IMG/VR virus record: IMGVR_UViG_3300010882_000011
Location: 64,001 to 128,000 of that record
Strand: one strand, 5' to 3'
Length of the DNA: 64,000 nt
Origin: a virus
Taxonomy: Duplodnaviria > Heunggongvirae > Uroviricota > Caudoviricetes
The notes under the pieces are model-generated. The model did not search any database. It was not told the DNA's origin and was given only the letters and a program-made list of their open reading frames with translations. This document shows positions 772 through 62,034 of the stretch, piece by piece (the first letter of the stretch is position 1; each line of letters opens with the position of its first letter). Position numbers and translations under genes: made by a program.

Positions 772-2199
772 ATGAGAATAACAAACTTTACAACTGTAAG
801 ACCTAATATGAGCGAAACTCGCACATATGAGGATTTTATGAAATTTTTAGGGGCTAACCCTGCAAGACTTGGTATTGTATCTACTTTGTATGATCAATAC
901 ACAGCAACTCACTTAACTGAAGCTCTTTTGAATACTTATACATTGGAAAAAGGTAAGAAAAATGCTTTCCAAAGTATTGATTCATTCGTAGTTGAATGGG
1001 ACATTAATGTAAACCGTATCAAACGTGTACATTTCAAAGCTGTTCCTGAAGGCGATGGCGCTAACGGAAGTGATATTATATTTAGATTTGGAGAAAACTA
1101 CTACCAGAAATTTGACACTTTCATTATAGAAAGAACTCGTCAGTTGATTATCGTTCTAAATCGTCCACAACGTATTAGCGATAATGAATGGGTAGTAATT
1201 GGTAAAATCCAAGACAGCGATTACGGCTCTGTTCTTGATACGTCTGGCACACAAGTTGGTATGCCTACACGTTTCGTAACGAACTACATGCCTGAAATGC
1301 ACGAAGAAGGATACGTTAAGTATCAAAGTAACGTTGAACGTCACAGAACTTATATTGGAACACACAGAGCTGATGCTTCTATGTCTGCACAATACAATGC
1401 AATGGAAGACGTATTTATCCAAATTGGAAAAGGTGATAAAGACGATCCTATCTATAAACTAAACACTGCTGAGAAGGACTGTTTAGATTCATTTATGGAA
1501 GCTCGTAACAACGCTTGTTTGTGGGGTAAAACAAATATGGATCAATTCGGTAAACCGAAAATTTATGACCCTGAAACTGGCCGTCCAATTATTGCTCCTG
1601 ATGGAATTATAGCTCAGATCGAGCGTTTTGCTACTAAATTTGCTTTCAGCAGATTGAACACCAAATTCTTCCACAAAGCATTACAAGTAATGGTTACTAA
1701 ATCCACAAAAGCAACTGGAAACGATTATTTATTCCTTTGCAACACTGCTATGTGGACTGAAATTCAAGAAACACTTTCAACTTGGATTCGTGATTGGAAA
1801 ACTGTAGGTACATTCGTATTCTCTACAGCATCTAACGGATATGTTGATTTAGGTGCAACTTACAACTCCTATGAGTTTGCAGGTAATAAAGTTACTTTCA
1901 AAGTTGACCGTTCATTTGACATTGAATATCCAACTCGTAAATTCGGTATTTTCTTAGATTTAACAGCCGATGCTGTATCTGGAAAAGCTGCTTTGAATAT
2001 GTTTACCTTCAAGAGAGGTGAAATTATTCATAACTTTATCAAAGGTGTTGGTGGAAACACTGGTTTACAACACGGCGAAGTATCTTCTCCTGTTGCTGCA
2101 TCTAAGATAATCAACTGGGGTTATGCAGGTGTTGGGGTTTATAATCCTTATCGTTCTGTAATCCTAATTTCTGAAGAAACTAGAACTCTTTGGTTCTAA
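772..2199 (+). CDS. Major capsid protein (crAss-like, HK97 fold)
   Basis: 475-aa ORF with crAss MCP-like sequence (e.g. GYVKYQSNVERHRTYIGTHR, LWGKTNMDQFGK); position at the head of the virion module. Confidence 0.85.
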   Translation: MRITNFTTVRPNMSETRTYEDFMKFLGANPARLGIVSTLYDQYTATHLTEALLNTYTLEKGKKNAFQSIDSFVVEWDINVNRIKRVHFKAVPEGDGANGSDIIFRFGENYYQKFDTFIIERTRQLIIVLNRPQRISDNEWVVIGKIQDSDYGSVLDTSGTQVGMPTRFVTNYMPEMHEEGYVKYQSNVERHRTYIGTHRADASMSAQYNAMEDVFIQIGKGDKDDPIYKLNTAEKDCLDSFMEARNNACLWGKTNMDQFGKPKIYDPETGRPIIAPDGIIAQIERFATKFAFSRLNTKFFHKALQVMVTKSTKATGNDYLFLCNTAMWTEIQETLSTWIRDWKTVGTFVFSTASNGYVDLGATYNSYEFAGNKVTFKVDRSFDIEYPTRKFGIFLDLTADAVSGKAALNMFTFKRGEIIHNFIKGVGGNTGLQHGEVSSPVAASKIINWGYAGVGVYNPYRSVILISEETRTLWF

Positions 2200-2217
2200 G
2201 AGATAATATTGGTGATA

Positions 2218-2242
2218 GTGCTCCTGTCTATGATGGGAGCAC
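2218..2242 (+). terminator. Stem-loop after MCP (attenuator or mRNA-stabilising hairpin)
   Basis: GTGCTCCTGTC-TAT-GATGGGAGCAC, 11-bp stem with two G-U pairs; no immediately adjacent U-tract. Confidence 0.55.
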
Positions 2243-2292
2243 ATAAACCTTTTAGATAAAATCTTAACAAGATAATTTGAATAAGAAATAAT

Positions 2293-3213
2293 ATGGAAAA
2301 TAAAACTATAACAATACGTAGCGTCTATAAAGTAAAACAATATTACATTCAGCCGCTAAAACAAAAGAATGGGATGAATCATCCATTTGTAAAGAAAGTA
2401 AGAATTAATCCGAATGGAGAATCCGAGATGATTCTTAGTGAAAAGGAAATGAATGATCCAGAAAGTCAATATTTCATCCCAGAAGATATGGAAATATTTA
2501 TTGAAGATGGAACAACTTTTAACTTAGCTGATCCTTTGCAAAGAAATAAATGGTTGGCCATTCAGGATTCTGAATTAATTGTTCCAACACGTGGAGCAAA
2601 AGATGAACATGGTAATTTAATCATTGATGGAGATAAACGTAGATATGGATTAGCCGAACTTTACGTTGATGTTCCTGGAGAAGAATCAGAAAAGAGTGTT
2701 AATAAGAGAAAACTAATCACCAAAGCATGGACATATATTGAAAATGATTCTGCTGCTGGTAGATTAACAAAGGTGAAATTACTAGGTAAAGTAATGAGAA
2801 ATGCTCCAGAATCGGACATTGCGGATTACTTATATCAAAAAGCAGAAGCTAAACCTGAATTGGTAATTGATCTTTATACAAGTCCCGATAGTGTACTGAA
2901 ACTTTTACTTATTGACGCAAGAGAGAAAAACGTTATAAGAAAAATCAATCAGTTATTCATGTATGGAGACACTGTTCTCGGAGCAACTGATGAAGCAATG
3001 ATATTATTCTTGAAAACTCCTTCTAATAAGAGAGTTTTAGAAGCCATCAAAAACGAAACATATCCCGATTTTGTTCGTACTGTAAATTCCAATTTAGATG
3101 GACAACAAGACCCTAATGATGAAAATCCTGGTCTTGCACTTACAAACGAAGACCCTATTCCCGAAATAAGTGAAGTTGACAAACAACTTAACAAAGGGAA
3201 AAATAATAAATAA
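2293..3213 (+). CDS. Conserved crAss-like virion protein (p-crAssphage gene 75-like position)
   Basis: 306-aa ORF following MCP; synteny. Confidence 0.65.
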   Translation: MENKTITIRSVYKVKQYYIQPLKQKNGMNHPFVKKVRINPNGESEMILSEKEMNDPESQYFIPEDMEIFIEDGTTFNLADPLQRNKWLAIQDSELIVPTRGAKDEHGNLIIDGDKRRYGLAELYVDVPGEESEKSVNKRKLITKAWTYIENDSAAGRLTKVKLLGKVMRNAPESDIADYLYQKAEAKPELVIDLYTSPDSVLKLLLIDAREKNVIRKINQLFMYGDTVLGATDEAMILFLKTPSNKRVLEAIKNETYPDFVRTVNSNLDGQQDPNDENPGLALTNEDPIPEISEVDKQLNKGKNNK

Positions 3214-3233
3214 TAAATAACAAGTAGAAACCT

Positions 3234-4121
3234 ATGACAAGTCGCGAACTTTATGAATATGCTTTAATTGAAATTAATAAGTTAGAAGCGCCTTCATTAC
3301 TACTGGAAGATTATAACTATTTTATTAATAAGGCTGTTCAACAGTATATTAATAAAGTTTATAATCGATACGACATTAATCAACAGTCAACAGACGATTT
3401 ACGAGTATTAAAGTCCTCTTCAATTTTGGAATTGGAACTTGATGCTTCTGAAATTAGCATGATAAACCTTCTTAATAGAACGTATTCATGTTTTATGCCA
3501 GACGATTATCTTCACATTTTGAACTGTGTGGTTGAATATGAAGTATTATCACAAAACTTTAAATGTTACGATGTTGGAACTAGAGTTTATTTCCCCGCAA
3601 GGAGATTAACTGCCGATATGTATTCACTGATTATCAATAATGCTTATATGCGTCCAATGTATAAAAGACCATATTACTTTATTAATAATGTGAACCTTAC
3701 TGAATATCAAAATAGTAATCTAATTGCTGTACCACAGAAACCAATATTGCCGTCTAATCCAGAAATGGATCAGGAAATTATTGACTCTGATCAAATTGAC
3801 AGTATTAGACCAATCTTTGATAGAAAATCCAATAACTCCACAGTTAAACTAGAAATTAGATATGGACAAGATGATGCTTTATTTTTAGCAAGAAGAGCAT
3901 ATGTGGATTATATTAAATCTCCAATGTTCGTTCGTCTTACTCAATCTCAAATTGACAGAACAGTTGATACTTCACAGGTTTTAGAATTTCCAGATTATGT
4001 ATGTTTTGAAATAGTAAACGAATTCGTTAAACTATTGTTAGAAAACGCAAGTGATCCTAGAATCCAAACTAATCCAGTAGTAAATCAAACAATTGCAACG
4101 GGAATACCTGAGCAACAATAA
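3234..4121 (+). CDS. Conserved crAss-like neck/tail ring protein (gene 74-like)
   Basis: 295-aa ORF; N-terminus YALIEINKLEAPSLLLEDYNYFINKAV and DDLRVLK resemble the crAss ring-protein family; synteny. Confidence 0.65.
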   Translation: MTSRELYEYALIEINKLEAPSLLLEDYNYFINKAVQQYINKVYNRYDINQQSTDDLRVLKSSSILELELDASEISMINLLNRTYSCFMPDDYLHILNCVVEYEVLSQNFKCYDVGTRVYFPARRLTADMYSLIINNAYMRPMYKRPYYFINNVNLTEYQNSNLIAVPQKPILPSNPEMDQEIIDSDQIDSIRPIFDRKSNNSTVKLEIRYGQDDALFLARRAYVDYIKSPMFVRLTQSQIDRTVDTSQVLEFPDYVCFEIVNEFVKLLLENASDPRIQTNPVVNQTIATGIPEQQ

Positions 4122-4154
4122 AAGAAAATAGAAATTTAAAACAAGTAAGAAATT

Positions 4155-5333
4155 ATGTTTACCTATACAAAAGAAATTATCATCAACTCGATGTATGCTG
4201 ACCAAGATGCTTATGGTTCAGGTCAACAGTTGCCTAAAATACAATCTGTAATTACTCCTGCTCCGAATACAGCACCTGCTGGTGTACTTAGAATATTAAG
4301 AGCTGGTGAGTACAAACAAGAAAACATTCAAGGAGCTAGAATTTTCAAAACTCCTGGTGTTGTTGGACAAACTGCTACAATGTTAGTTCCAAATGCAGCT
4401 GGTTTAATGGCCACTGCTGGTATTTACAGAGTTTCCATTTATATTGGAATGGCTCATAAATACTTAGGAGACTTTGCTCACGCAAACTGGTATCCATTTG
4501 GTAAAGCATTAGTTGCTGACTTCTCTGTTGCAGACGGAATGAGTGCTGCTGAGAAAATGCAACAAATGACAAATGCAATCAACTTGACTATTCCTCGCAA
4601 TAACATTTTTGCAAGAACAGTTCTTAACGGAGTTGACCTTTCAGTTTATTTAACTGATCCTTATGCTTTCATCGCCAGAGCTACTTTGGAATGGTATGAT
4701 CCAAACGAATGTAATCTTTGCTCTGGATTCTACACAGAAATTCCAGAATTTGAAAACCTAGTTGAAATTACTAGAAATGTTGAGCCATTTGCAACTGCTG
4801 CATGGTTAGTAGAAAACTTGAGATTCCCAAGTTATCCGAATGTTCGTTATGCTGCTTTGTATGCTGATGAATATCCAATTGCTGGACAACTTTACACTAT
4901 GTATTCATTTGCATATGATGTTGAAAGAACTGGTTACTTCGGATTAAACGGAGTTAACGAGAAAATGGGTGCTGTAACAAGACACGTGTACTATGTACTT
5001 AATAGCGAAGTTGCTGCTTTTGAAGCACAAGTAACTGCTGCATTCCCAAATGTTGCTATTGTAGAAAATAATACTGTTATGATTACAACTGCTCCAACAG
5101 TTGCTAACGATGGTGTTGCTATTCAATTAGTAGCTACTACTTGGCCAATGGATTCTTCTGCAACTATCACTTGGGCTTCTGCGGATCTTCCAGCTGATGT
5201 TACTTTAACTTCTACTGGTATATTGACTGCTGATCCTGCCGCTGTAGTTGGAGCAACATTCACCGTAACTGCTACATCCAGCAATCCTGACTATAAAGAA
5301 GCATCTATATTGATGACTGTAATTGCAGGATAA
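4155..5333 (+). CDS. Auxiliary capsid/decoration protein with C-terminal Ig-like domain
   Basis: 392-aa ORF; C-terminal ~85 aa is Thr/Ala/Val-rich with Ig-like pattern (ATITWASAD...TGILTA...TFTVTATS). Confidence 0.6.
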   Translation: MFTYTKEIIINSMYADQDAYGSGQQLPKIQSVITPAPNTAPAGVLRILRAGEYKQENIQGARIFKTPGVVGQTATMLVPNAAGLMATAGIYRVSIYIGMAHKYLGDFAHANWYPFGKALVADFSVADGMSAAEKMQQMTNAINLTIPRNNIFARTVLNGVDLSVYLTDPYAFIARATLEWYDPNECNLCSGFYTEIPEFENLVEITRNVEPFATAAWLVENLRFPSYPNVRYAALYADEYPIAGQLYTMYSFAYDVERTGYFGLNGVNEKMGAVTRHVYYVLNSEVAAFEAQVTAAFPNVAIVENNTVMITTAPTVANDGVAIQLVATTWPMDSSATITWASADLPADVTLTSTGILTADPAAVVGATFTVTATSSNPDYKEASILMTVIAG

Positions 5334-48679: not shown

Positions 48680-48726
48680 AAAAAAAAATAGCCCGCACTC
48701 CTTTCGGAATACGGGCTATTTTTTAT
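48680..48726. terminator. Bidirectional intrinsic terminator between the convergent modules
   Basis: A-tract-TAGCCCG...CGGGCTA-T-tract at the strand switch. Confidence 0.9.
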
Positions 48727-49678: not shown

Positions 49679-49920
49679 TATTCGTAATTATTAATTAATT
49701 CTTTAATCTCTTTTAACTCAACAAGTATATTTTTATGTTCAGTGTCATAATAATACTTACGATCTATAACCTTGTACTTGCGAGGTAGTGTAGTTCCTTG
49801 ATATCTCCCTTGAGTTGCAGGAATAGTAATTATTTCTCCAACTTCGGGAATTACTAGAAAGTTTGTTTCAAGGAGAACAAAACTTTCACATTTGTATATA
49901 ACGTGGTATTTACTAATCAT
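49678..49920 (-). CDS. Hypothetical protein, 80 aa (IPxVG motif)
   Basis: TAATG coupling at both ends. Confidence 0.65.
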   Translation of the reverse strand: MISKYHVIYKCESFVLLETNFLVIPEVGEIITIPATQGRYQGTTLPRKYKVIDRKYYYDTEHKNILVELKEIKELINNYE

Positions 49921-50294
49921 TATCAGTCATATGTAAATCCGATTATGCGATCTTTTTTAACTTTTTCAAAGAGAATATCAATAAGTTCTTCTACGTTGTC
50001 GTGAATATTATCATCCTCACATTCCTTTGCATATTCAATTAACGCTGGAAATGACCTTTCCATATATTTCTCTCACCACGGTCCACTATCATATTCATTG
50101 GTAAATTTTTCCCATTTCTCGTCCTCGAAGTCTAACATTCAACCACTGTAGGGCAATAAACCATATGCGTCAATCAACGTCATTATTTCTAATTTGGTTA
50201 GACCAGAGTTTGTCTCCAATAAGTTATCAACTAAAGACTTCTTTTGCTGATTATATATTTCCAACACCGCAGCCCATTCTGAAAACTTACTCAC
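49920..50294 (-). CDS. Hypothetical protein, 124 aa (TGA=Trp x3)
   Basis: GTG 50294 overlapping the thyX stop; TGA at 50139, 50073, 49923; final TAA overlaps the next ATG. Confidence 0.6.
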
Positions 50295-51144
50295 TGATAT
50301 ATCCTTTCTCCTTAAATTCTTCATATAACGGTATTGCCAATTCTCTCATCTGAGGATGCGCACTTTCTGCTACTCTTAAACCAAAGAAGTGTTTTCAATC
50401 ATCTAGGAATCCTGTCATTACTACTTCTGTTTTAAGTGCGTTTGGTAATACTGCTCTTGCTTGTTGAGGTTGCCAATTACATTCATTCAATAAGTTAAAA
50501 TATCTATTTTCACATTCTCGTAAATGATAATTGAATATTCTACTATCTTTATCAGTGTCTGTATTATCTAACCAAGTAGGTTGTATAAAAGTAATTTCAT
50601 TATTAAACTTATCTTTAGAATAGTTACAATATCTTGTACTCTCTTGAGCAAAACTAAATACTCTATGTCTTACTAATTCATGGGATACGCCTCTATCACA
50701 AATCCATCTAACTGATACTCTTTTTTCATGGTGTTTTGTTGGTAAACAAATATATTCTAAATCATCTAACCAATTATTCTCTAAAAGAACTCTATAGTTA
50801 GTTGTGATATAATATTTATGTTCATTACCATTATAATTACAAACTGAATATTTATTATCACTATACTTTAAACCATTGGGTTCTTCAATATATAAATAAA
50901 CAGTACCATGTTCCAACATAGCCGTATGACCTCTTTCGATAATCATATCTACAAATTTCTTCGCAGAATCATCAGTTATTCTATCTTCGGACTTGTAGCA
51001 AGTTCTCCCTGCTACTTCAATTTGTTTATACACTACATCTAAAGGATCATTTTCTAAAGTCATAGAACCTGTTTTTGCACCTTTACATATAGTAGTATAA
51101 TATTCTGGATTTAGTATTTCTACTGATGGCTTAATTAGCTTCAT
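50287..51144 (-). CDS. thyX: Flavin-dependent thymidylate synthase, 285 aa
   Basis: GHTAMLEH, ELVRHRVFSFAQESTRY; readthrough of TGA 50395 restores W-KHFFGLRVAESAHPQMRELA. Confidence 0.9.
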
Positions 51145-51319
51145 ATTCTTTTTCAAGGATTAAACGTACATGCTCATCACAATCATCACATCATATAGAG
51201 TCAATATCATCTAAGCATGCTTCGCTTGTATATTCGTAGGTATTGGCATCAACTCAAGCTATAACACTAACGTTCCTAGATCCACATTCTGCACATACCC
51301 ATATTTGTTTTTCGTTCAT
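51131..51319 (-). CDS. Small Zn-finger protein, 62 aa (TGA=Trp x2)
   Basis: WVCAECGSRNV...AWVDANT...WCDDCDE; absent from the ORF track. Confidence 0.7.
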
Positions 51320-51328
51320 TGTTCAATT

Positions 51329-53317
51329 TTAATGAATTCAGCAATCTCCAACCTGAACATCAGCGCCCAATTTAATATTGGTACAGAATACAGCTCCTGC
51401 TCTTTCCATACAGTCAACTAAGACTCTGGACATTTCGTCAGCTATTTCTTCTGGAGATTCTATGTTTATTTCGTCATGAGCAGGTATAGTGAACTTCACT
51501 TTAAATAGAAGATCATTTTGTATTAAATAATCATACAAGAATATACAGGCATACTTAAACATAAGTGCGCCACAGCCTTGAATACGATAGTTGATACTTT
51601 GTTTTTCACTTTCTGCTCATCTTCTTGCAAGTTTTCTTACATCTTGCACTGTTGGACAATCTGGATCCATTTCTTTCAGTCCTCTGTAGGTTTCCCAAAA
51701 GCCAGATTCATTCTGCCGTTTCTGCATTCGTTTCAACTCCTCAAAGTCATAGATATATGCTTTGTGTCCAGTTATTGGGCTCAATTCGATAAATCCCTTT
51801 TGCCGAACCTCCTTTCTTGCCCATTTCTGGTAGTCACGGAGACCAGAGAAACCTTCCATATATTTATCATATACTTCTTTTGCTCATGCTGCACTAATAC
51901 CATAGTTTCTTACTAAAGTACTATCCTGTCCACCATAATTAAAGGCAAATTCATATCCTTTTGCTTCCTGACGAAGATGTTTATATTTGGTTTTTATTTC
52001 CTCTAGTGGAAAATCGTTTGGTATTTCATCAAATACCATCCTAGCAGTTAGACTATGTAAGTCTCCAGAACCGTGAATGAGTTCATAAAGCATAGCCTCA
52101 TCATTAGAGATCGATGCCATGATAACACTCTCCTGACCTTGATAGTCAGCAGAAATTCACTTATGACCCTTCTCTGCAACGAAACATGCTCTGGTTGTAG
52201 CATCTCTTGGCAAGTTTTGTAAGTTTGGATCTGAAGAACTTAACCGTCCAGTATCTGCACCTAATTGCCAGAAATTCGCATGGATTCTTCCAGTCTTTGG
52301 GTTGATTAAATCCAGAAACTTTTCTCCGAATGTTCCTACCAAAATAGCTGCCTTCTTATATCCTATAAATATGGGTATGAGAGGGCTTTTTTCTTTCTGT
52401 GGCTCAATTACTTTGATATCCACAGACTTTTTCATTTTCTTAGTTACTTTGTCTAATGTGTTGACATTTATCCCAAGTTGTTCAAATAATGGAATAACTT
52501 GTTTAGAGCTTTTCCAGTTAATGTTACACTTTGGTCTTGTGTCAAATCCAGAGAATAAATCTCCCTGAATATTAACTGTTACAAATTTTCCTCCGACATT
52601 TTCCTCTACTCAAGCATTAAGCTCATTAACTCTTTCTTCACAAGTATCAGAGTCGTCAGTCATTTTTGCACGTCATTTATTAGTATCGACCTTTGTTCCA
52701 CAAAACTCAAAATAAGCAAGTGGTTTCACAAAATGATTTTCAACTTTAATAGCATTAAGAAGCCCTTGTTCTGCAAGTTTTTCTTCTTGTTTTTCTTTAA
52801 TTTTTTCCAGATATTTAACATCTAATGCAGCATATTCTACTACATTTTCAGTTAATCCTTTATCAATAATTTGACCACGTACCGTCTTATCTAATTCAAT
52901 TCCTAGATAATTCATACCAGCTGCTTTTAAATTCATTTCATGCATACCAGGTGGATAACCTAGCCACAATAGTTTTTCAGCCAAGAATCCGTCCCAAATT
53001 TTCTTCGGCACTATTCCCTGCTTAAATAAGAATTTTAAGTCAAACTTCGCATTTCAAAATAGAAATGTTCTATTGGATTCTAAATAAGGTTTGTATCGTT
53101 GTATATCAACAGTCAAGCAATCAATAACTATCTGGAAATCATAACAACCTAACTGAAGGGATAAGAGTTTCTTTGTATAAACATCAAATCCCTCAGTTTC
53201 AGTATCCGTTCCAACTGTCTTCAAAGATTCTAACATCTCTAGAGACTTTTCTACTGATATAATTTCGTACATCGTAGATTTTAATAGTTGGGGTGCATTA
53301 GTTACTAGGTAAATCAT
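51329..53317 (-). CDS. polA: Family A DNA polymerase with 3'-5' exonuclease, 662 aa (7 TGA=Trp)
   Basis: Six fragments in one frame; DTETEG exonuclease motif, TGRLSSSDPNLQN, ADYQGQE, RQEAKGYEFAFNYG, AHDE; ends GDCWIH*. Confidence 0.92.
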
Positions 53318-53701
53318 TTAATTTCACATGGTTTTACACTCCTTGCATTCTAAATAAATAGTTTCATAGCAATCGTTATAATGTACTATAAGACTATTGC
53401 TGAAGCAAGTGGGGCAATGGGTACTAGTTGGGTCGATGTATGTTTGTTCAAATACATCAGGTTTGCAAGGATAGAATTCACCCTTTATTCCTTTAATAAC
53501 AAAGTCTCCTTCCGATAACATATAGCTGCATCCTTCAAGAGTATCTATGCAGTAACCCACATAATCAGTGCAAGTGCAAGAGTCTACACGCGGAACTGGT
53601 ATTAATTTGTCTCCGCAAAACTCTTTTATTTCGTCAAAATTAGAACCAGTACATTGAATAGCTTCAATTGTTACTGGTTTTTTCTTATATTGTTTAACCA
53701 T
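53318..53701 (-). CDS. Conserved phage protein (KKPVxIEA...GEFYPCKPD family) with C-terminal CxxC...CxxC extension, 127 aa
   Basis: Motifs YKKKPVTIEAIQ, TLEG, GDFVIKGIKGEFYPCKPDVF; reads through TGA 53324 to TAA abutting the polA ATG. Confidence 0.7.
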
Positions 53702-53997
53702 TATAGTTCCTGTATTGTTAGTACTTCTACACTATAACTATCAAAAACCATATCTGCAAGAACTGGATGTTCTGTTTCTATGGCTATTTTGATAGTCTCG
53801 TGTAATCTTCAGAAATCAGAATCAAATTCTTCATATTGCATTGGGGCTGGTATAGAAATTGAGTATTTCTCTATATCAGATACAAACCTATAGCCAGCAA
53901 TATAAAGAGTTATTTGGTACGTAGCTTGGTAATCTCTGTCATTTCATGGTGCACCAATCATCGAATCAGTTACACCAGGTGGGAGATTACCATTCAT
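53701..53997 (-). CDS. Hypothetical protein, 98 aa (NLPPG...GAPWN motif; TGA=Trp x2)
   Basis: Fills the gap between flanking genes; TAATG coupling; absent from the ORF track. Confidence 0.65.
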
Positions 53998-54298
53998 CCT
54001 TATCATCTGGATCAGCATCGTAATCACGATTTTCATCGTGTTCTCTTACATAGTATGAAAGCCAGTCCTCACGTTCTTCATTGAATATATCAATTGCTTC
54101 CTCTTCATCAACCCCATCATCTTCCATGATTTCATCAATGCCTCTAATACCATGTAATCCTATGTAAGACTCGTATGTTTCGCAGGCACATTCCCATGCA
54201 TAGTTTTCAGCATCAGCTTCTGACTCAAACTCTATAGTATCAATGTAATCCACTGATCCAAGAGTTTCGTATAATCCAGCGTATATTCTATATTTCAT
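53987..54298 (-). CDS. Highly acidic hypothetical protein, 103 aa
   Basis: 35 Asp/Glu versus 7 Lys/Arg. Confidence 0.7.
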   Translation of the reverse strand: MKYRIYAGLYETLGSVDYIDTIEFESEADAENYAWECACETYESYIGLHGIRGIDEIMEDDGVDEEEAIDIFNEEREDWLSYYVREHDENRDYDADPDDKDEW

Positions 54299-54467
54299 TT
54301 GTTTTCCTTAAATCAACATTGCTTAATCAAACCATGTTCACAAAATATGAAGATGATCCAAAATCTTCTAATCCTTTATCATCATTAATCAGATAAGAAT
54401 TTTGTTCAAACCCTTCGATCTCCATTAACTGTTGAACGAAGGGTCATTGTATTGGTACGAAACTCAT
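54288..54467 (-). CDS. Hypothetical protein, 59 aa (QWPFVQQLM motif; TGA=Trp x2)
   Basis: TAATG-coupled start; ends TAG; absent from the ORF track. Confidence 0.6.
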
Positions 54468-54778
54468 TATTCTTCTGTTACGTCTGTTATAGTATAGTTT
54501 CCGTAATAAGCACTTCCACTAAACCTAAACTTAACGTTATGATATTCAAAGAAGTGATTAAACATTAAAGTCCAGTTATTGAATTCAATGTCTTTTTCGT
54601 GTACCTCAATACCTAATTGCCAAAATGCTTTGTATATAGTTCAAATACAAGCTTCATTAATTTCCAGAGCTTTTTCTGGCTTAAAGGCTGTTGTCCCACT
54701 GGCAATTAGGAACGAAGTTATTTCGTTTTGTAGGCATTCTCTACCATTGCTGAATGCCTGTTTATTTGTTAATCCCAT
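54467..54778 (-). CDS. Hypothetical protein, 103 aa (one TGA=Trp)
   Basis: ATG 54778 directly after the upstream stop; TGA 54641; TAA overlaps the next ATG. Confidence 0.6.
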
Positions 54779-54780
54779 AA

Positions 54781-54990
54781 TTATGCTACCCAAATTATTA
54801 TCATTTCATTATCTTGACAGCAAAACTGTCTTCGTGTTACATGCATGTATGCAGGAGTATGTCCACAAACATAGACTTCATCTCCAACGTTTGGAATCAT
54901 CATAGTATTATCAGTTTGATATATACTATTTTTACTAAGTGATATTCCTCCATACATAAAGTGAATTTTGTATTGTTTAGAAGTCTCCAT
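54781..54990 (-). CDS. Hypothetical protein, 69 aa (IPxVG motif)
   Basis: ORF packed between neighbours. Confidence 0.6.
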   Translation of the reverse strand: METSKQYKIHFMYGGISLSKNSIYQTDNTMMIPNVGDEVYVCGHTPAYMHVTRRQFCCQDNEMIIIWVA

Positions 54991-55882
54991 AATATACCTG
55001 ACAACAAAGTAAACCTAAATCTCTCCACATATCTACTACTTTTTGTCGATCATCAAAGACACACAAAACATTGTATTTTCCTTCAATATGTTTTTCGTAT
55101 AATTCTTTCTTTATAATTGCATCATTACGGTGATCACCGTACTCTCGCATATAAAGATCAAATTCTAAATAGGGTAGGTGTTTCTTTAACCAATTGAAGG
55201 TGTCCGCATAGCAATTTGGTACACATTCTCTTCCAGAAAAGAAAATTAGCTTTGTATTTGTGTCTTTGATCATTCGGCTAAGCAAATAAGATAAACGAAT
55301 ATCTTCTTTATCAGTTGATACTCGTGTATAATCATACGGACTACGACCAGTTCTAAGGGCCAGAGTTCCGTCTATATCACATATTACACAATCATTATCA
55401 ATACCCATACACGGATTTATCATTTTACGTGTATCAACAAACCTTTCATCAACAATAGGTTCACTTGGAAAATATTTTCGGAAAAATCTTTCTAACACCT
55501 TCTTACCAACAGCACGTTTTCCTTCCTTTTCACGCTTTGTATCGCGTTCTAAGGCCGTTTTCCAATCGACTTCAAACAGTTTAAACTCGATATCACAATC
55601 GTGATGATTTGCATAAAGTCTCCATTTATCAATTGTTTTAGGATTTAAGTTTGTAGCATCAATGATAACGCTTAATCCGTCACTAAGTGCAGCAGTTACT
55701 TGGAAGTCTTCAACACTAGTAATATAATCCTCCCTTTCGGGAACCCAATATATACCACTTGCTTCACGGATTTCGTCTCGTGATACAATCACGTAACTTT
55801 TATCCTTTGCCGCTAGCTCTCTAGCAAAGGTGCTCTTGCCAGAAGCAGGAACACCTTGTAATACTAATATTTTATTCTTCAT
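54977..55882 (-). CDS. Polynucleotide kinase-phosphatase (T4 PseT/Pnkp-like), 301 aa
   Basis: GVPASGKST P-loop kinase plus HAD phosphatase DIDGT and FDDR motifs. Confidence 0.85.
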   Translation of the reverse strand: MKNKILVLQGVPASGKSTFARELAAKDKSYVIVSRDEIREASGIYWVPEREDYITSVEDFQVTAALSDGLSVIIDATNLNPKTIDKWRLYANHHDCDIEFKLFEVDWKTALERDTKREKEGKRAVGKKVLERFFRKYFPSEPIVDERFVDTRKMINPCMGIDNDCVICDIDGTLALRTGRSPYDYTRVSTDKEDIRLSYLLSRMIKDTNTKLIFFSGRECVPNCYADTFNWLKKHLPYLEFDLYMREYGDHRNDAIIKKELYEKHIEGKYNVLCVFDDRQKVVDMWRDLGLLCCQVYYGDF

Positions 55883-57284
55883 TGTCTTCTCCTTCTTGTG
55901 TTTCCATGTCAATTACACCTTTGTCCAAATTTTCAGTTTCTTTTCTTAAGAAAGCTAATGATTTGAGTTTGTAAGCCTCGAAATTAGGTTGATCAACTCT
56001 TAATACAACCCCTTCTCTTGGAACTTTGTTGTAACAATATAAACAGTTCATTTCTAAATAATCATCTGTTAGATGTTTCAGAAATGCTTCTCTCATGCTT
56101 TCAAAGCTTTCCCATTCGGTTTCTCTGTTGCAAAGGTAGCTATCCACAGTTCCATAGAATATTTCTCTAACTGGCATTAATCCAATTCTTTCGCAATACT
56201 GTCGTAAGTTTACTGCTGACATTTCAGTTACAACTCCATCAACATTCGTTTGCGTAATACGATAGACGACTATTTTAAATAGATTTGCATCAAGCATTTG
56301 CTGTGGTGTCATTTTGTTATAATCGTAGATTTTTGGGAAATACTCACATCCATAGTCATATTCCTTCTGAAGCATTCCTCCGTTAGGCAAGTAACCAACT
56401 ACTTCAGCATAGATGGTCATTCCTTTCTTAAGATGTGGTCTTATTAATTCTAAAGTAATACCCCAGATATCTACATCGCCATAAAATCCAGATCCTAATG
56501 ATTTATTCAATTCAGGATCTTTAATTACTTTACGAGATGCAGAGAATATTTGGTACTTTGTATCAACAATATTAACCTTAATAAGTTTAAGAAACTTTTC
56601 AAATATAGAAAGTTTCTTTTTTACAAGTAGATTGCAATAGATAGCTGATGTTCCGTGCCATTTGTCAGAGATATGGATTAATGTTTCTGGATTGAACTTG
56701 TGTAAGTTCTTTTTTAATTGAGCAGTATCATCATGAAATCTGAATTGTTCTTCGACAATCACGTCTTCGTATTTCCTTTCCTTCTTTCTGTTTTTACCTC
56801 CAGTTCCAGGTTGACCTGGAGTACGAGAGTGCTTAGGAATATATTTCTTCACAAATTGATAGTCATTAATCACATCAAATTCAGTCCCAACTAATGCATC
56901 TATGTTTTTCGGTAGATCCATAAGTGGTAGTAAAGAAGAAATAGGCATTACAAATCCCTCAGAATCAAAGTCTCGAAGTCTAACACAACGTACACGTCTA
57001 TTCTTTTCAAAATATCCTCCTTTACAGGTAGTGTCGCGATTGAGATTACCTTCTGAGGTTACTCTGTATAAGTTATTACAGTGTAAATAATCGTGGTGTA
57101 TTTCACACTCAGTAGGAAAGTAGATGAATATCCCTGGTTCTGTATCAATACCCACAGAGATCACAAATCCATCTACTGTAGCTAATTTCATTCTATCAGC
57201 ATTTGGATGTGGTTTAAATGAATCAATTCTTGCTATTTTGGCAAGATAATTCGGGTTTGCGTTTTTACTTATCGTTAGGTTCAT
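55872..57284 (-). CDS. RNA ligase (DRB0094/Rnl2-like with N-terminal OB-like domain), 470 aa
   Basis: HPNADRMKLA N-terminus, motif I DKWHGTS, YAEVVG, REGVVLR...YKLKS. Confidence 0.8.
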   Translation of the reverse strand: MNLTISKNANPNYLAKIARIDSFKPHPNADRMKLATVDGFVISVGIDTEPGIFIYFPTECEIHHDYLHCNNLYRVTSEGNLNRDTTCKGGYFEKNRRVRCVRLRDFDSEGFVMPISSLLPLMDLPKNIDALVGTEFDVINDYQFVKKYIPKHSRTPGQPGTGGKNRKKERKYEDVIVEEQFRFHDDTAQLKKNLHKFNPETLIHISDKWHGTSAIYCNLLVKKKLSIFEKFLKLIKVNIVDTKYQIFSASRKVIKDPELNKSLGSGFYGDVDIWGITLELIRPHLKKGMTIYAEVVGYLPNGGMLQKEYDYGCEYFPKIYDYNKMTPQQMLDANLFKIVVYRITQTNVDGVVTEMSAVNLRQYCERIGLMPVREIFYGTVDSYLCNRETEWESFESMREAFLKHLTDDYLEMNCLYCYNKVPREGVVLRVDQPNFEAYKLKSLAFLRKETENLDKGVIDMETQEGEDNEE

Positions 57285-57552
57285 ACCAGCTGTTTACTAC
57301 TTTATGATAATTATGGTCAATACTACTCTGGCCAAGCAGAAAAGCTTCCCAAAGTAATACCTCTAACGGAGATGGGTGATCTTCGTTATCAAATATTTCA
57401 TTTATTTTGTTGTAGGTTTCATTGTTTCCGTAGCAATCTAGATCACTTAACCACTCTGTGAAGTGTATATCTTCGTGAAAGGAAGAAAGAAGGCCAACAT
57501 TAGGACCTCTCATGATTCTTTTTTGAAAGTCTGTTATAGGTTTATTTTCCAT
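57265..57552 (-). CDS. Hypothetical protein, 95 aa
   Basis: ORF overlapping both neighbours. Confidence 0.6.
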   Translation of the reverse strand: MENKPITDFQKRIMRGPNVGLLSSFHEDIHFTEWLSDLDCYGNNETYNKINEIFDNEDHPSPLEVLLWEAFLLGQSSIDHNYHKVVNSWYEPNDK

Positions 57553-58153
57553 GTAATTGTTGTGTAAAAATTGTTTTTAAATCCTGATAAAGTACTGGTT
57601 TGAAATTATTATTATCAACTCCAACATCATAACTTGGTAAAGGTCTATTAGCGATATAATCAACATCAAGTTGTTTGGTTGATAATGGAGAAGTGTGTGA
57701 ATGTCCGAAACAGTGATATACTCCATTCCATTGTCCTGGCCATGAGGTCATACAATAGTGAAACAAACAGAAATTAGTGTAAGTTTCTGTTTCCTCCTCC
57801 CATATAGAAAGATAAACTATATCATCAACAGATTCAAACCCATCATGATATATCTCATCTGGCCTATCATGGTTTCCTAGAATTAAGTACTTCTTCCCAT
57901 TCAGGTTATCTAAGTGCTTTTTCCATTCTTTCTTACTGCCAAAACAGAAGTCTCCTAAAACAAAAACGAGGTCATCGTTTGTGACAACCTCGTTCCAGTT
58001 CGTAGTAAGAGCCTCGTTCATCTCTTGACGAGATATAAAAGGTCTGTTGCAGTATTTGGTAATATTAAAATGAGAAAAATGTAAATCACTTGTAAAGAAT
58101 ACATTGCCTGTAAATTCTTTAGGTATTGTTATCCTCTTCATAGTTATGTTCAA
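57542..58153 (-). CDS. Calcineurin-like metallophosphoesterase
   Basis: SDLHF, LGDF, GNHD, GHSH motifs; exact start uncertain. Confidence 0.85.
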   Translation of the reverse strand: MNITMKRITIPKEFTGNVFFTSDLHFSHFNITKYCNRPFISRQEMNEALTTNWNEVVTNDDLVFVLGDFCFGSKKEWKKHLDNLNGKKYLILGNHDRPDEIYHDGFESVDDIVYLSIWEEETETYTNFCLFHYCMTSWPGQWNGVYHCFGHSHTSPLSTKQLDVDYIANRPLPSYDVGVDNNNFKPVLYQDLKTIFTQQLHGK

Positions 58154-58694
58154 ATAAGTATTCTATAGTTTCTTGCCATTCCCTGTATTTTTTAACAGCT
58201 TCATCGTATTCATCCCAGTATTCTGGTTTTAAGTAGTTTTGTTGTAGTGTAAAATATGAAGTTCCTATATTGTCTTTGTTATAGGTAGTCCACTTTCCCT
58301 CCGCCTTCATTGTTTCAAATAAGTCACCTGGTTTTTCACCATGTAGGTAACTTAATATGCTTGTCCAATAATGATCAGAACTTTCGTGTTCAGAATGTGG
58401 CCAATATTTCCACCAGTAAAAGCACAGCCCAAAGAAGACAATGCCGAATGTTGGAGGAAATTCATAGCGGAAATCATAACTAGTCCATTTTGTTTTGTAG
58501 AACAAATCCCAGTTAAAGATATAAAAACTTAACCAGATTGGAAGGTTAAATGATTTTCCAAAGATTTTGATATAATTCCCCCTTCTCCATATAGGTAAGC
58601 CTGGACTCTTTCTCCATCTTCCGAAGAAGAATGCGTTTTTCGGAGCTACAAAGACATCCTTTACCTTGTTGTAAGTTTTATTTATTTTTATCAT
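58119..58694 (-). CDS. Trp/Phe/Tyr-rich hypothetical protein, 191 aa
   Basis: 12 Trp, all TGG. Confidence 0.65.
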   Translation of the reverse strand: MIKINKTYNKVKDVFVAPKNAFFFGRWRKSPGLPIWRRGNYIKIFGKSFNLPIWLSFYIFNWDLFYKTKWTSYDFRYEFPPTFGIVFFGLCFYWWKYWPHSEHESSDHYWTSILSYLHGEKPGDLFETMKAEGKWTTYNKDNIGTSYFTLQQNYLKPEYWDEYDEAVKKYREWQETIEYLFEHNYEEDNNT

Positions 58695-58713
58695 TGTTTT
58701 TGATTTTATTCAT

Positions 58714-58795
58714 TTTTAGACGTTCTGGGAGACTTTGTGTCGATCTGGACCTGTCCCTCATGTTGGTACTCAAAGTCCCGCCAGAGTGCCTAAAA
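58714..58795 (-). ncRNA. Candidate structured intergenic RNA/DNA element
   Basis: 56% GC over 58721-58790; 14-bp plus 8-bp interrupted stem whose G-U pairs favour the - strand. Confidence 0.45.
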
Positions 58796-58820
58796 TCAAA
58801 TGAAAAGTGTATAATTTTTT

Positions 58821-59081
58821 CTATTTTGAGATGATTTCCCAAAGGTCATTAAACGAAATATCAGTTTGCTTAAAGAGATATTCCTCTATTAGTTCTTGGT
58901 TTTTTTCTCCAAATATATGTCCAATTAATTTGAATATAACATAATTAACATTGGAGTAGTAACTACATTCCTGTGAATCTATATCTACACCTACTACAGA
59001 TAACCTTTCCTTAATTTCTTCAGAATTTTGGTATGCCCGTAGAATTAGTAGAAATTCCTCTTTAGTCATTGTCGTCTTCAT
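58821..59081 (-). CDS. Hypothetical protein, 86 aa
   Basis: ORF overlapping the DNA ligase stop. Confidence 0.6.
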   Translation of the reverse strand: MKTTMTKEEFLLILRAYQNSEEIKERLSVVGVDIDSQECSYYSNVNYVIFKLIGHIFGEKNQELIEEYLFKQTDISFNDLWEIISK

Positions 59082-60243
59082 ATCTTACGTATTTGAATAT
59101 CGGTAAATTTGGTACTCCATCTGGTGTAAAGCCAAAGAATTTTACTGTACCTTGTTGTCCGATTATGTTGTTCATGTTTTTTCTGTATTCCTGTTTCAAA
59201 GCTCTATCGCCAATTGGCTTAGCTTCAAATGATCTTCCGTTAGGAGCTTGTAATTGAAATACAAAATCCTCCTCACGGAGACCTTCAACCATTCCAGTGA
59301 TGAGAAACTCATCATCCTGAAACATTTTAATTTTTATCATGCGGTTATCTCGCTTTCCAAATCCATATTCCTTATTAGGATTACGGATTATACAACCTTC
59401 ATATCCTTCCTTCACATATTTATCATGTAAGTGATCAATATCACTCCATGATGTAGTTTTTACATGTTCGCATACAACTATTTTGTCAGAGTCCTCAAAT
59501 ACATCTTGCATTTCTTCCAAAAGTGCAAGTCTTTCAGTAAATGGAACATCAGGAATAGCTATATCAAACACGTAGTATTTCAAATCACAGTGATGTGCTT
59601 CAAGTGTAATTTTTCTACATAATCCAGAAATATATGGTAATGGTAAACCATGAATATACAATTCACCATCTAATACAATGTCTGGATAAGATTGCATGAA
59701 TTCTATTAGTTTGGGATCTTGAAGAATATGTGTAGATGGAATATCATAATTGCCTCCACCTCTTGATGAAGTTTTCAACTCATCATCCTGCATTTTCATC
59801 ATCATGCGTACTCCATCGAGCTTTCGGCTACAATAATGCTCTTTCTCAAATGTAGAGAGAGCGACATCATTATAAGATTTACATTGCATTGGCTTCTGGA
59901 AGCCTGCTTGATCTGTAACCTCCTGTGGAAATACTTCGTTTGGATCAAATTCATCTAATGATGAATATCCAAAATCTTGTATATCCTTATATCCTTTATC
60001 AAGATATTTTTTAATATGAGAATTATATTCCAGATCAATTTGTTCGGCTAAAGTTCTTTTAGCTTTACCTTTGTTAACTTCGATTAGTGGTTGCTCAGTA
60101 ATTTTACCTCCAAGTTGAGAGGTTTTCCTGATGATTATAAATGAATGTAGTGCTTCATTCCACTGATAACAGATATCTACAACTCTAATCTTTCCTTTGC
60201 TGTCTCGTGTAATTAGTATATTATTCATTCTCAATGGGTTCAA
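59062..60243 (-). CDS. ATP-dependent DNA ligase
   Basis: SRKLDGVR, VLDGELY, YEGCIIR, IKIKMFQDDEF, VKFF...G.P..P OB motifs. Confidence 0.9.
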   Translation of the reverse strand: MNPLRMNNILITRDSKGKIRVVDICYQWNEALHSFIIIRKTSQLGGKITEQPLIEVNKGKAKRTLAEQIDLEYNSHIKKYLDKGYKDIQDFGYSSLDEFDPNEVFPQEVTDQAGFQKPMQCKSYNDVALSTFEKEHYCSRKLDGVRMMMKMQDDELKTSSRGGGNYDIPSTHILQDPKLIEFMQSYPDIVLDGELYIHGLPLPYISGLCRKITLEAHHCDLKYYVFDIAIPDVPFTERLALLEEMQDVFEDSDKIVVCEHVKTTSWSDIDHLHDKYVKEGYEGCIIRNPNKEYGFGKRDNRMIKIKMFQDDEFLITGMVEGLREEDFVFQLQAPNGRSFEAKPIGDRALKQEYRKNMNNIIGQQGTVKFFGFTPDGVPNLPIFKYVRYEDDND

Positions 60244-60457
60244 ACTCGGTAGAAATAATTCTTTCCTCTACAGGTAGTAATTCGTTACCAAATTGACCTT
60301 CCCTTTCTCCCCACTTCTTAGCTTCTTGAACTATAAACTGAAGATCATCTTGGTCAATCTGGTTATACCTCGCTACTTTATCAAGTATTTCTCTTGTTTT
60401 CTGCTTTGGAGAACCATTCTCTTTGAAGTTAGATAAGGTTTCGTATTTATAAGGCAT
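60221..60457 (-). CDS. Hypothetical protein, 78 aa
   Basis: ORF overlapping neighbours. Confidence 0.6.
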   Translation of the reverse strand: MPYKYETLSNFKENGSPKQKTREILDKVARYNQIDQDDLQFIVQEAKKWGEREGQFGNELLPVEERIISTEFEPIENE

Positions 60458-60608
60458 TTTCAGTAGGTTTATATTTCCTCCTCTTGTATCTCTTTTTAGA
60501 TTCTACAATATTGGAGTAATTGATTGATTTGCCATGAAGTTCAAATTCCTCTTCTCTTGCTTTACGTTTAGCTACTTTCATGGCATCTTTTATGCGATTT
60601 CTTTTCAT
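60447..60608 (-). CDS. Small basic hypothetical protein, 53 aa
   Basis: MKRNRIKDAMKVAKRKAREEEFELHGK...; fills the gap; below the track cutoff. Confidence 0.6.
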   Translation of the reverse strand: MKRNRIKDAMKVAKRKAREEEFELHGKSINYSNIVESKKRYKRRKYKPTENAL

Positions 60609-60609
60609 G

Positions 60610-62034
60610 TTACTTAATTAACATATGTATATCCTTTCTTGTTCTGGACATACTAACATATTGTAATTGTCTTAATTCTTGCTTATTTGTACATCTCAAT
60701 ATATTTTCCATATCAATCAGTACATTGTCAAATGAGCTTCCTTGACTTTTGTGGGTACTTAGACAGTAACCGTAACTCAAACTTTTATTCCGAATTACTC
60801 TACCATCAAAAATCATATCAATTGGAGTTAGAAATGATCCCATGATTTTGAAATACTTAACCCACAACTTATTTCGTTTTTCCTTACTTCTCTCGTTTAT
60901 GGCATCAAACCTTGCTCTCTCTACACAATAAGCTATTGAATTAAATACTTCAAGGGAATTTTGTGTTGATAGAACATAAACATGCAGAAAGAATTCCTCA
61001 TAAACGGAATATAAATCTAATAAATAACCTTCCGTTCAAATTCCACAAATTTCCTTTTGATGGGGACATATACCTGTGACTATGTAATCGTTAGAATTAT
61101 ATAGTTTATAGGATAATCCTCCTCTGGAAAATGAATAGTGCATATTATCTGACTTATATTCACAAGAATCATGGGCCATTAATATATCACCAAGATTGTA
61201 TTCATTGTCGTTTTCAAAAATCATTTTCCTAATTACTTTATTAAAGGCATCTACTCGTTTATTAGTATATGCTAGTAATTTAATGAGATTGGGATTTTGA
61301 TCTTTAACTGATTGCTTAAATAGAGAAATGTTCTTACCCAATAATCGCTGCCAATTATTATATATTACTAGATTTCCATTCGGAGAAATAATTTCTGAAA
61401 AGTTTTTCTGGCTTTTAGTTCGCAGTTCAGTTAGAACATCAAGTATAGGATTATCATCTTCTTGTCGATAAATTTTACTTAACTGAAAAGTTGAGTCAAT
61501 CTTTGTAGCTTTAGACAATTTGTTATCCTTAACTGGTTGTAACTGACAGGCATCTAAAATCCATATGATTTTACAATCTCTTCTTTTACACTGTTCGACT
61601 ATATAATCAAATAGCACTTCATTTATCATTGAAGCTTCATCAATTAATAATATTCCATCTCGTGGAATACCGTTGTCTAATGTATTAGAATTGAATTGCA
61701 GATCTTTGAAATCTAGTTCAAGAATGTCAAGAGTTGGTTTAAGTGAAAGTAGTTGATGTACTGTAATAACATCCCGTTCAGTTGATTCCGAAATAACTCG
61801 TTTGGCTTTATGAGTTGGGGCAGCAATTATATAAGATAATCTTTTTTCTTCAATATATCTTATTATTAATTTAGTAATGGTTGTCTTTCCAGTTCCAGCA
61901 GATCCAATTAGAGAACATTGTTTTTGATCAACATCCTCTATAAAATTAAAAATTGAGAGAAGTACATCTCTCTGTTCTTCTCCCAATTTAAATTTTAAGT
62001 ATTGTTTCTCTAAATTGTCTATAGTGGGATTCAC
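60610..62034 (-). CDS. SF1B (Dda/RecD-like) DNA helicase, 474 aa (one TGA=Trp at 61036)
   Basis: GSAGTGKT, DEASM, IYRQ, THKSQGSSF, YVSMSR; two track fragments in one frame. Confidence 0.88.

Follow-up and report, generated by a model that had tools for sequence, protein, structure and literature searches.

The minus strand of the phage genome analysed here carries, at positions 54781-60608, a stretch of genes centred on RNA repair in which no tryptophan (Trp) codon is TGA, in a phage that reads TGA as Trp. Positions are those of the window, the whole 64,000-nucleotide stretch of DNA that was analysed, which spans bases 64001-128000 of one virus record, 170,238 bp long. The gene order, common with IMG/VR contigs of 160-177 kb, suggests a Zeta-type crAss-like phage. 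Its sequence was present in three termite-gut metagenome DNA runs from two studies, and no RNA runs containing it were found. The source is thus the termite gut; most described Zeta phages come from the human gut.

Eleven minus-strand open reading frames (ORFs) were counted in the stretch. Pnkp (54977-55912, with a likely start 10 codons inside this ORF) is a bifunctional polynucleotide 5'-kinase/3'-phosphatase of the T4 type, in which a P-loop kinase domain (PF13671, residues 16-147) is fused to a HAD 3'-phosphatase domain (PF25109, residues 174-311). It matched phrog_505 (E 3e-86), the structure of Pnkp1 (PDB 4xrp, E 5e-43) and, over the full length, that of T4 Pnkp (1ltq, E 1e-35). Next to it lies the gene for an ATP-dependent RNA ligase (Rnl; 55872-57284; phrog_968, E 6e-42) with the Rnl5-type architecture, an N-terminal OB domain followed by a nucleotidyltransferase domain that holds the motif I lysine. 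K208, G211, T212 and S213 are invariant across nine homologues, K208 being the putative catalytic lysine, and PF09414 is recorded on relatives. We considered the Rnl1 family for this enzyme and rejected it: the one match of the family profile was to the OB domain in the RNA ligase of Naegleria gruberi, which is of the Rnl5 type (E 4e-8, profile positions 14-128). The single RNA ligase protein gave no sequence match against solved ligase structures.

The remaining genes encode a calcineurin-like metallophosphoesterase (57542-58153; PF00149; phrog_547, E 2e-45), a Trp-rich protein of 191 amino acids (58119-58694), an ATP-dependent DNA ligase (59062-60243; PF01068; phrog_114, E 4e-61) and small proteins of 69 (54781-54990), 95 (57265-57552) and 86 (58821-59081) amino acids, together with two of 78 and 53 amino acids (60221-60608). 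Neither the 69-residue nor the 95-residue ORF gave a family match, and the Trp-rich protein belongs to no Pfam or PHROG family; its structural look-alikes in the atlas were unnamed viral clusters only, found with a poor model. A 126-nt non-coding gap on the same strand (58695-58820), covered by a doubtful 54-residue ORF, contains a GC-rich stem-loop (-31.4 kcal/mol, z -3.3). The stem is not followed by a U-run, and a search of 54-61 kb gave no Rfam match for it.

TGA is Trp in this phage, including at the TGA codons of the adjacent block (49920-54793). Long genes fragment under the bacterial code and are whole when TGA is sense, as in a 1503-residue ORF with 16 in-frame TGA codons. Opposite the in-frame TGA codons of the phage, relatives carry W 122 times and an in-frame stop of their own 74 times. 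Residue 254 of ThyX, for example, is encoded by TGA in the phage and appears as W in 41 relatives and TGA in 3; the same pattern recurs at residues 215, 236, 387 and 660 of PolA and at residue 154 of NrdG, and the TGA codons of relatives align mostly with W of the phage. Among the 20 tRNA genes of the genome, one has the anticodon UCA (tca; genome c[162826,162919], ARAGORN), so that the phage encodes its own tRNA matching the recoded codon. This gene lies about 39 kb outside the window, which itself holds no tRNA(UCA). Neither a release-factor gene nor a tryptophanyl-tRNA synthetase (TrpRS) gene was found in the genome. The phage-borne tRNA(UCA) and the TGA-free blocks together suggest that the host reads the standard code.

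Across 54781-60608 we counted no in-frame TGA and 34 TGG codons, or 33 if the 69-residue ORF is left out (Trp-rich protein 12, Pnkp 6, phosphoesterase 5, Rnl 3, 95-residue ORF 3, DNA ligase 2, and one each in the 86- and 78-residue ORFs), in agreement with the 33 Trp codons, all TGG, reported in the initial annotation. The nine minus-strand ORFs of the adjacent block contain 20 TGA and 20 TGG codons; the annotation had given 19 of 38. The two blocks differ strongly in TGA use (Fisher's exact test, 4e-7), and the boundary at about 54780 is as sharp as had been described. The last TGA-free ORF stops at TAA 54781; after 2 nt comes ATG 54777, the likely start of the first TGA-using gene (ORF 54467-54793), whose first TGA is at 54641-54643. 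Beyond it lie the gene for a conserved protein of 59 amino acids (54288-54467; 2 TGA, 0 TGG) and that for the family A DNA polymerase PolA (51329-53317; phrog_17, E 9e-100), with 7 TGA codons, found at conserved Trp positions, and 6 TGG. The block also contains a MazG-like protein, ThyX and small ORFs; three TGA-free genes follow, the last of which encodes the dNMP kinase.

The right edge, by contrast, is soft. The Dda-like helicase gene (60610-62034; phrog_325 over residues 11-472) has 1 TGA (residue 333) and 3 TGG codons, and from 54781 to window position 73306, past the end of the 64-kb window, 5 of 98 Trp codons are TGA and 93 are TGG. Genome-wide, TGA accounts for 193 of 372 Trp codons (52%) in the late plus-strand block and for 66 of 366 (18%) in the minus-strand block, in which TGA-free runs of 57, 34 (the present stretch), 32, 21, 21 and 20 Trp codons occur. 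On the minus strand, TGA is used by the genes for primase, DnaB-like and other helicases, Sak4, RusA, RNase H and PolA, and also by HNH endonuclease genes; the TGA-free genes include those for RNA repair, NAD-salvage enzymes, GroEL and an exonuclease. The count thus stands, and the bounded island of the initial annotation is one patch of a mosaic, the second longest TGA-free run of the minus-strand block.

Taken alone, the run is unexceptional against this background: when TGA and TGG labels were shuffled within the minus-strand block at its rate of 18%, runs of at least 33 codons arose in 6.5% of trials. The stretch might then be a stochastic gap left by incomplete recoding, with neutral TGG-to-TGA change still accumulating, and it is in keeping with this that most of its genes hold just 1-6 Trp codons and that the DNA ligase, with two, is uninformative. 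We regard such an origin as highly improbable, given the coexistence of three runs of 32-57 codons in the minus-strand block, the contrast with the abutting block and, above all, the codon use of related phages.

An alignment search with kinase homologues yielded 64 IMG/VR loci, to which exact-protein look-ups added four. TGA-recoded loci numbered 49, with codons counted within aligned regions; dereplication at 90% kinase identity left 18 TGA-recoded lineages, and clustering at 70% left 10. A second sample, anchored on the RNA ligase, was drawn from the best 80 matches and might favour uninterrupted RNA-ligase genes. As each search could favour intact copies of its own query, we relied on cross-anchored counts. 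At the DNA level, nothing in the phage collection was closely related to the stretch, and at the protein level the best RNA-ligase match was 38% identical; a single-protein scan of viral contigs gave no match, whereas alignment-based scans did.

TGA use in the 49 recoded loci depended strongly on the gene. TGA made up 2% of Trp codons in Rnl (3 TGA, 126 TGG), 3% in Pnkp (7 and 217), 12% in ThyX (22 and 167) and 15% in the phosphoesterase (6 and 34, from nine matching loci), rising to 59% in PolA (68 and 48), 61% in the DNA ligase (70 and 44), 71% in the dNMP kinase (45 and 18), and 75% in both NrdD (67 and 22) and the late 1503-residue gene (122 and 40). After dereplication, the fractions ran from 0-8% (phosphoesterase, with 0 TGA and 19 TGG, Rnl and Pnkp) to 47-79% (DNA ligase, PolA, dNMP kinase, NrdD and the 59-residue protein), with marked heterogeneity among families (chi-square 337, 23 degrees of freedom). 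In the 18 kinase-anchored lineages, Pnkp and Rnl together had 12 TGA codons against 61 expected (z -8.5), and in 17 of these lineages (sign test 7e-5), or 9 of the 10 left by 70% clustering, their TGA use was lower than that of same-strand neighbours. Rnl had 4 TGA among 58 codons in the ligase-anchored sample, with 20.5 expected. The cross-anchored counts agreed: 6 TGA and 83 TGG for Rnl in the dereplicated kinase-anchored sample, and 2 TGA and 28 TGG for Pnkp in the ligase-anchored one. TGA avoidance is a property of the gene family and not of the block.

Both samples thus disfavour chance. The same genes hold little TGA in independent lineages at 45-55% protein identity, where synonymous sites have long been saturated and A is taken in 77-80% of the other A/G choices. 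In the relatives, 77% of the Lys, Glu and Gln codons of Pnkp and Rnl end in A, yet 6.7% of their Trp codons are TGA, and GC content at third codon positions (GC3) in the two genes follows each resident genome. Pnkp and Rnl have long been resident in these genomes, and it is TGA in particular that they avoid. The claim that all genes of the stretch must be readable in the host code was accordingly too broad. It is supported for Pnkp, Rnl and the phosphoesterase, whose orthologues are nearly TGA-free, and, with thin counts, for the Trp-rich protein, whose homologues in two loci (L019 and L051) have 0 TGA and 12 TGG each. It is unsupported for the 86-residue ORF, which has TGA in some orthologues, and for the DNA ligase: TGA occurs in its orthologues at 30 of the 36 recoded loci and makes up 61% of their Trp codons, an outcome that the initial annotation had itself named as refuting its reading.

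These genes share a common order in the relatives: NrdD, NrdG, helicase, DNA ligase, (phosphoesterase, Trp-rich protein), Rnl, Pnkp, (59-residue protein, MazG, polymerase), ThyX, dNMP kinase and a convergent late gene. Since this order is kept, the block is ancestral to the group. In several lineages a TGA-free kinase gene is followed, 2-20 nt on, by the 59-residue gene with a TGA at about codon 8; the conservation of this junction means that the sharp left edge is where a gene that avoids TGA meets one that tolerates it. In the relatives, genes with and without TGA follow one another in alternation along a single array, which gives no support to the earlier proposal of a code switch staged along the minus strand.

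The relatives of the 59-residue protein have about 55-85 amino acids and a start motif K-Y-V-I-V-E-W-P, and TGA makes up 70% of their Trp codons. Their gene comes after the kinase gene in many phages, often 2-20 nt away (for example at L034:10435, L060:10453 and L062:10424). We considered whether it acts as a conserved early gate, its TGA controlling downstream translation. The first Trp codon was TGA in 24 and TGG in 15 of 39 loci, a proportion near that of unconstrained families and with no sign of selection for TGA, and the idea was dropped.

The explanation we favour, and hold to be probable, is that purifying selection keeps the RNA-repair genes TGA-free, family by family, for readability by unmodified host translation. 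The stretch would then belong to the early or auxiliary minus-strand half of the genome, with TGA presumably read through the phage tRNA(UCA) and TGA use set gene family by gene family throughout this phage group. Pnkp, the Rnl5-like ligase, the metallophosphoesterase and probably the Trp-rich protein would be held TGA-free, while the genes interleaved with them would drift to the A-ending codon. We infer both the reason for the selection and its timing. The most likely reason would be that RNA-repair proteins must come from host translation, which terminates at UGA through release factor 2 (RF2), a need that may arise early in infection or when suppressor tRNA is in short supply or has been damaged. 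For the DNA ligase and the small ORFs, the absence of TGA here would come from their having 1-3 Trp codons each and from the low TGA use of this lineage across the 18-kb auxiliary zone.

Transcription units offer no obvious basis for separating the two classes of gene. Genes are packed stop-on-start, with stop and start overlapping or 3 nt apart at 54781 and 54977, where the ATG of the 69-residue ORF overlaps the Pnkp stop. From 66.4 kb to 48.7 kb in window coordinates, there is no intergenic gap of at least 35 nt apart from the 126-nt non-coding stretch. The only strong intergenic terminator within 48-64 kb is a minus-strand hairpin of 19 pairs followed by a T-run (48683-48724), at the junction of the minus-strand block with the convergent late block; a 14-pair hairpin (57963-57996) sits inside the phosphoesterase gene. 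Our promoter and terminator scan found no signal at 54780, and sigma-70-like promoter matches were fewer than in shuffled sequence, Bacteroidota-type promoters lying outside the scan. As there is no gap at the switch between TGA-free and TGA-using genes, any staging acts at translation and not at transcription; the TGA-using replication genes share the gap-free array, and their delay would likewise act at translation.

Several observations weigh against selection for host readability. The TGA fractions of the families form a continuum and not two classes, and there are exceptions within the favoured families: Pnkp has 3 TGA codons in L002 and 2 in L052, and Rnl has 2 in L017 and 3 in L126. The early expression of Pnkp and Rnl is itself presumed, and the tRNA(UCA) gene, located upstream in the same-strand block, may be transcribed before the RNA-repair genes. 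In the late block, the capsid operon (772-5333, plus strand) has 0 TGA and 15 TGG codons, with TGA-using genes on either side; because this operon is late and presumably highly expressed, a TGA-free gene is not always an early one. Pairwise identities of Pnkp track those of neighbouring genes weakly (Spearman 0.1-0.2), leaving room for some gene exchange, although the correlations were weak among gene families generally. Finally, NrdD (63521-65653, minus strand, partly past the window) has 0 TGA and 11 TGG codons here, against 25 TGA and 9 TGG in dereplicated relatives (Fisher 2e-5), a lack that family-wide selection does not explain.

The capsid operon and the continuum could also reflect a cost of suppression that has nothing to do with timing. 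If read-through of UGA has to compete with host RF2 whatever the stage of infection, TGA would be shunned wherever truncation is harmful or Trp codons are many, and the protein with 12 Trp codons, which lacks TGA here and in its two homologues, fits this. Giant late proteins carry 9-16 TGA codons each, however, which indicates that read-through is efficient at some stage, and one would not expect large amounts of RNA-repair enzymes. A cost of suppression apart from timing is unlikely, and it overlaps the explanation we favour, both being forms of selection against dependence on the suppressor.

NrdD may point in another direction, towards import. The TGA-poor zone is lineage-specific for the DNA ligase, NrdD and the gene at 66477, and could stem from exchange with a standard-code relative at an earlier date, or from a shift within this phage lineage. 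A recent acquisition would be a different matter: the block, or the wider TGA-poor zone, would have recombined in from a standard-code relative and not yet accumulated TGA. Zeta-group phages are mosaic and their codes change over short distances (PMC7886860; PMC12386605), the loose tracking of Pnkp with its neighbours would be expected, and the donor may have been a standard-code Zeta phage of like composition. Modules do move, as PolA illustrates: it is 71% identical to L030:11890-13881, while the flanking genes in L030 are only 41-49% identical, which suggests that the polymerase gene was exchanged between recoded lineages. For most genes of the region, the nearest relatives are 45-64% identical at the protein level.

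Recent import receives no support, and we think it very improbable. GC content is 0.344 in the stretch and 0.343 in the adjacent block; GC3 is 0.280 and 0.246, respectively, with 0.27-0.30 in other minus-strand regions; and the A-ending fraction of Lys, Glu and Gln codons is 72.3% and 71.9%. Synonymous codon use in the stretch, like its GC3, is inside the range seen elsewhere in the minus-strand block. The stretch and the adjacent block differ in TGA alone, and the synonymous-codon comparison that the initial annotation had proposed as a check for transfer thus sides with residence. Every gene of the stretch with homologues has its closest one in a recoded phage (56 versus 53% identity for Pnkp, 49 versus 45% for Rnl, 64 versus 42% for the phosphoesterase and 60 versus 46% for the DNA ligase), and the gene order from helicase to dNMP kinase is common to many relatives. 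Moreover, low TGA in Pnkp and Rnl in 17 of 18 lineages, with resident-like GC3, would require repeated recent imports at the same site. Across the genome, GC3 drops as TGA use rises, from 0.27-0.30 in TGA-poor minus-strand regions to 0.25 in the PolA block and 0.22 in the late block.

A more specific form of selection for host readability is that the RNA-repair kit of Pnkp, the Rnl5-type ligase and the phosphoesterase is TGA-free because it serves as a fail-safe, restoring the tRNA pool, suppressor included, after attack by host anticodon nucleases. The logic is that a repair kit for the decoder must not need the decoder, and would therefore avoid the recoded stop. We put this forward tentatively, as a possibility with the odds against it. 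If it were true, the same rule would apply to unrelated phages that recode TAG. Among such phages, those of the Lak group have few TAG codons anywhere around the RNA-ligase gene, which speaks neither for nor against the rule; MT835470.1 uses an essentially standard code in its RNA-ligase region.

Two further regions of the genome show the extremes of TGA use. The longest TGA-free run, of 57 Trp codons, lies just upstream of the tRNA array (genome 163286-170209; L070:15286-20000) and includes NAPRTase-like, NAD synthase and phosphoribosyltransferase genes and a weak Macro-domain match, a set that looks like one for NAD salvage and counter-defence. Within the tRNA array, two HNH endonuclease genes (genome 157939-158544 and 160787-161641; 9939-10544 and 12787-13641 on L070) have TGA at all Trp codons (3 of 3 and 4 of 4), and a GIY-YIG family in the relatives has 89% TGA. 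Homing endonucleases seem to have adapted completely to TGA as a sense codon.

Selection of the kind we favour adds resolution to what is known of recoded phages: it keeps given families codon-free across diverged lineages while their immediate neighbours use TGA, and suggests that translation is gated one gene at a time and not staged by operon. The functions singled out as having to be independent of the suppressor tRNA are RNA repair and, perhaps, counter-defence generally. The result also yields a concrete list of genes with which to study how and when recoded phages switch code, and for annotators it means that equating the early block with the standard code is too coarse a rule.

Work on alternatively coded phages reportedly includes that of Ivanova (2014). 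In crAss-like phages, reassignment occurs mostly in late-gene regions, and branches of the Zeta group differ in code (Yutin et al. 2021, PMC7886860). Use of the recoded stop is enriched or depleted by gene family, the genes of the code change stay in standard code, and control at the level of translation has been proposed (Borges 2021/2022, bioRxiv 10.1101/2021.08.26.457843). In the phage Lera, 18% of ORFs contain TGA, and these are mostly structural (PMC12386605). RNA ligase turned up nowhere in the Borges preprint, the Zeta paper (PMC12386605) mentions neither RNA ligase nor polynucleotide kinase, and a full-text literature search found no paper tying RNA-repair genes to avoidance of a recoded codon. 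The present phage follows the pattern of a recoded stop enriched in late genes and depleted elsewhere (52% versus 18%, and 0 of 33-34 in the stretch). This general pattern, block-wise recoding with code-neutral early genes, is already established and the explanation largely known; what is new is that particular genes, those of the RNA-repair kit, avoid TGA throughout their families.

Compared with alternatively coded gut phages in general, the phage shares a phage-encoded suppressor tRNA, a recoded stop used mostly in structural or lysis genes, a subset of genes free of the codon, gene families enriched or depleted in it and a proposed post-transcriptional control. It differs in that replisome genes use TGA and auxiliary genes do not, and in that the avoided set centres on RNA-repair genes amid TGA-using genes in one gap-free array. 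In T4, Pnkp and Rnl1 repair tRNA and so counter the PrrC anticodon nuclease. Here, too, the gene for a T4-type kinase/phosphatase adjoins that for an ATP-dependent RNA ligase, and the phage has many tRNAs, but the ligase is Rnl5-like, a metallophosphoesterase is added, and any role of the set in tRNA repair is putative. Another parallel is found in the Zeta phages Lera and ct1yV3 (PMC12386605), which likewise have genomes of about 170 kb, about 20 tRNAs including tRNA(UCA) and two opposed gene blocks, with TGA mostly in structural genes and some DNA-processing genes recoded; the present phage differs in coming from a termite gut, and its membership of the group would rest on gene order. Jade phages encode a code-change module (suppressor tRNA, TrpRS and release factor 1) in standard code, so that there, as here, genes related to decoding stay readable by the host. 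Unlike them, the present phage has no TrpRS or release factor that we could find, and its code-neutral genes repair RNA rather than change the code.

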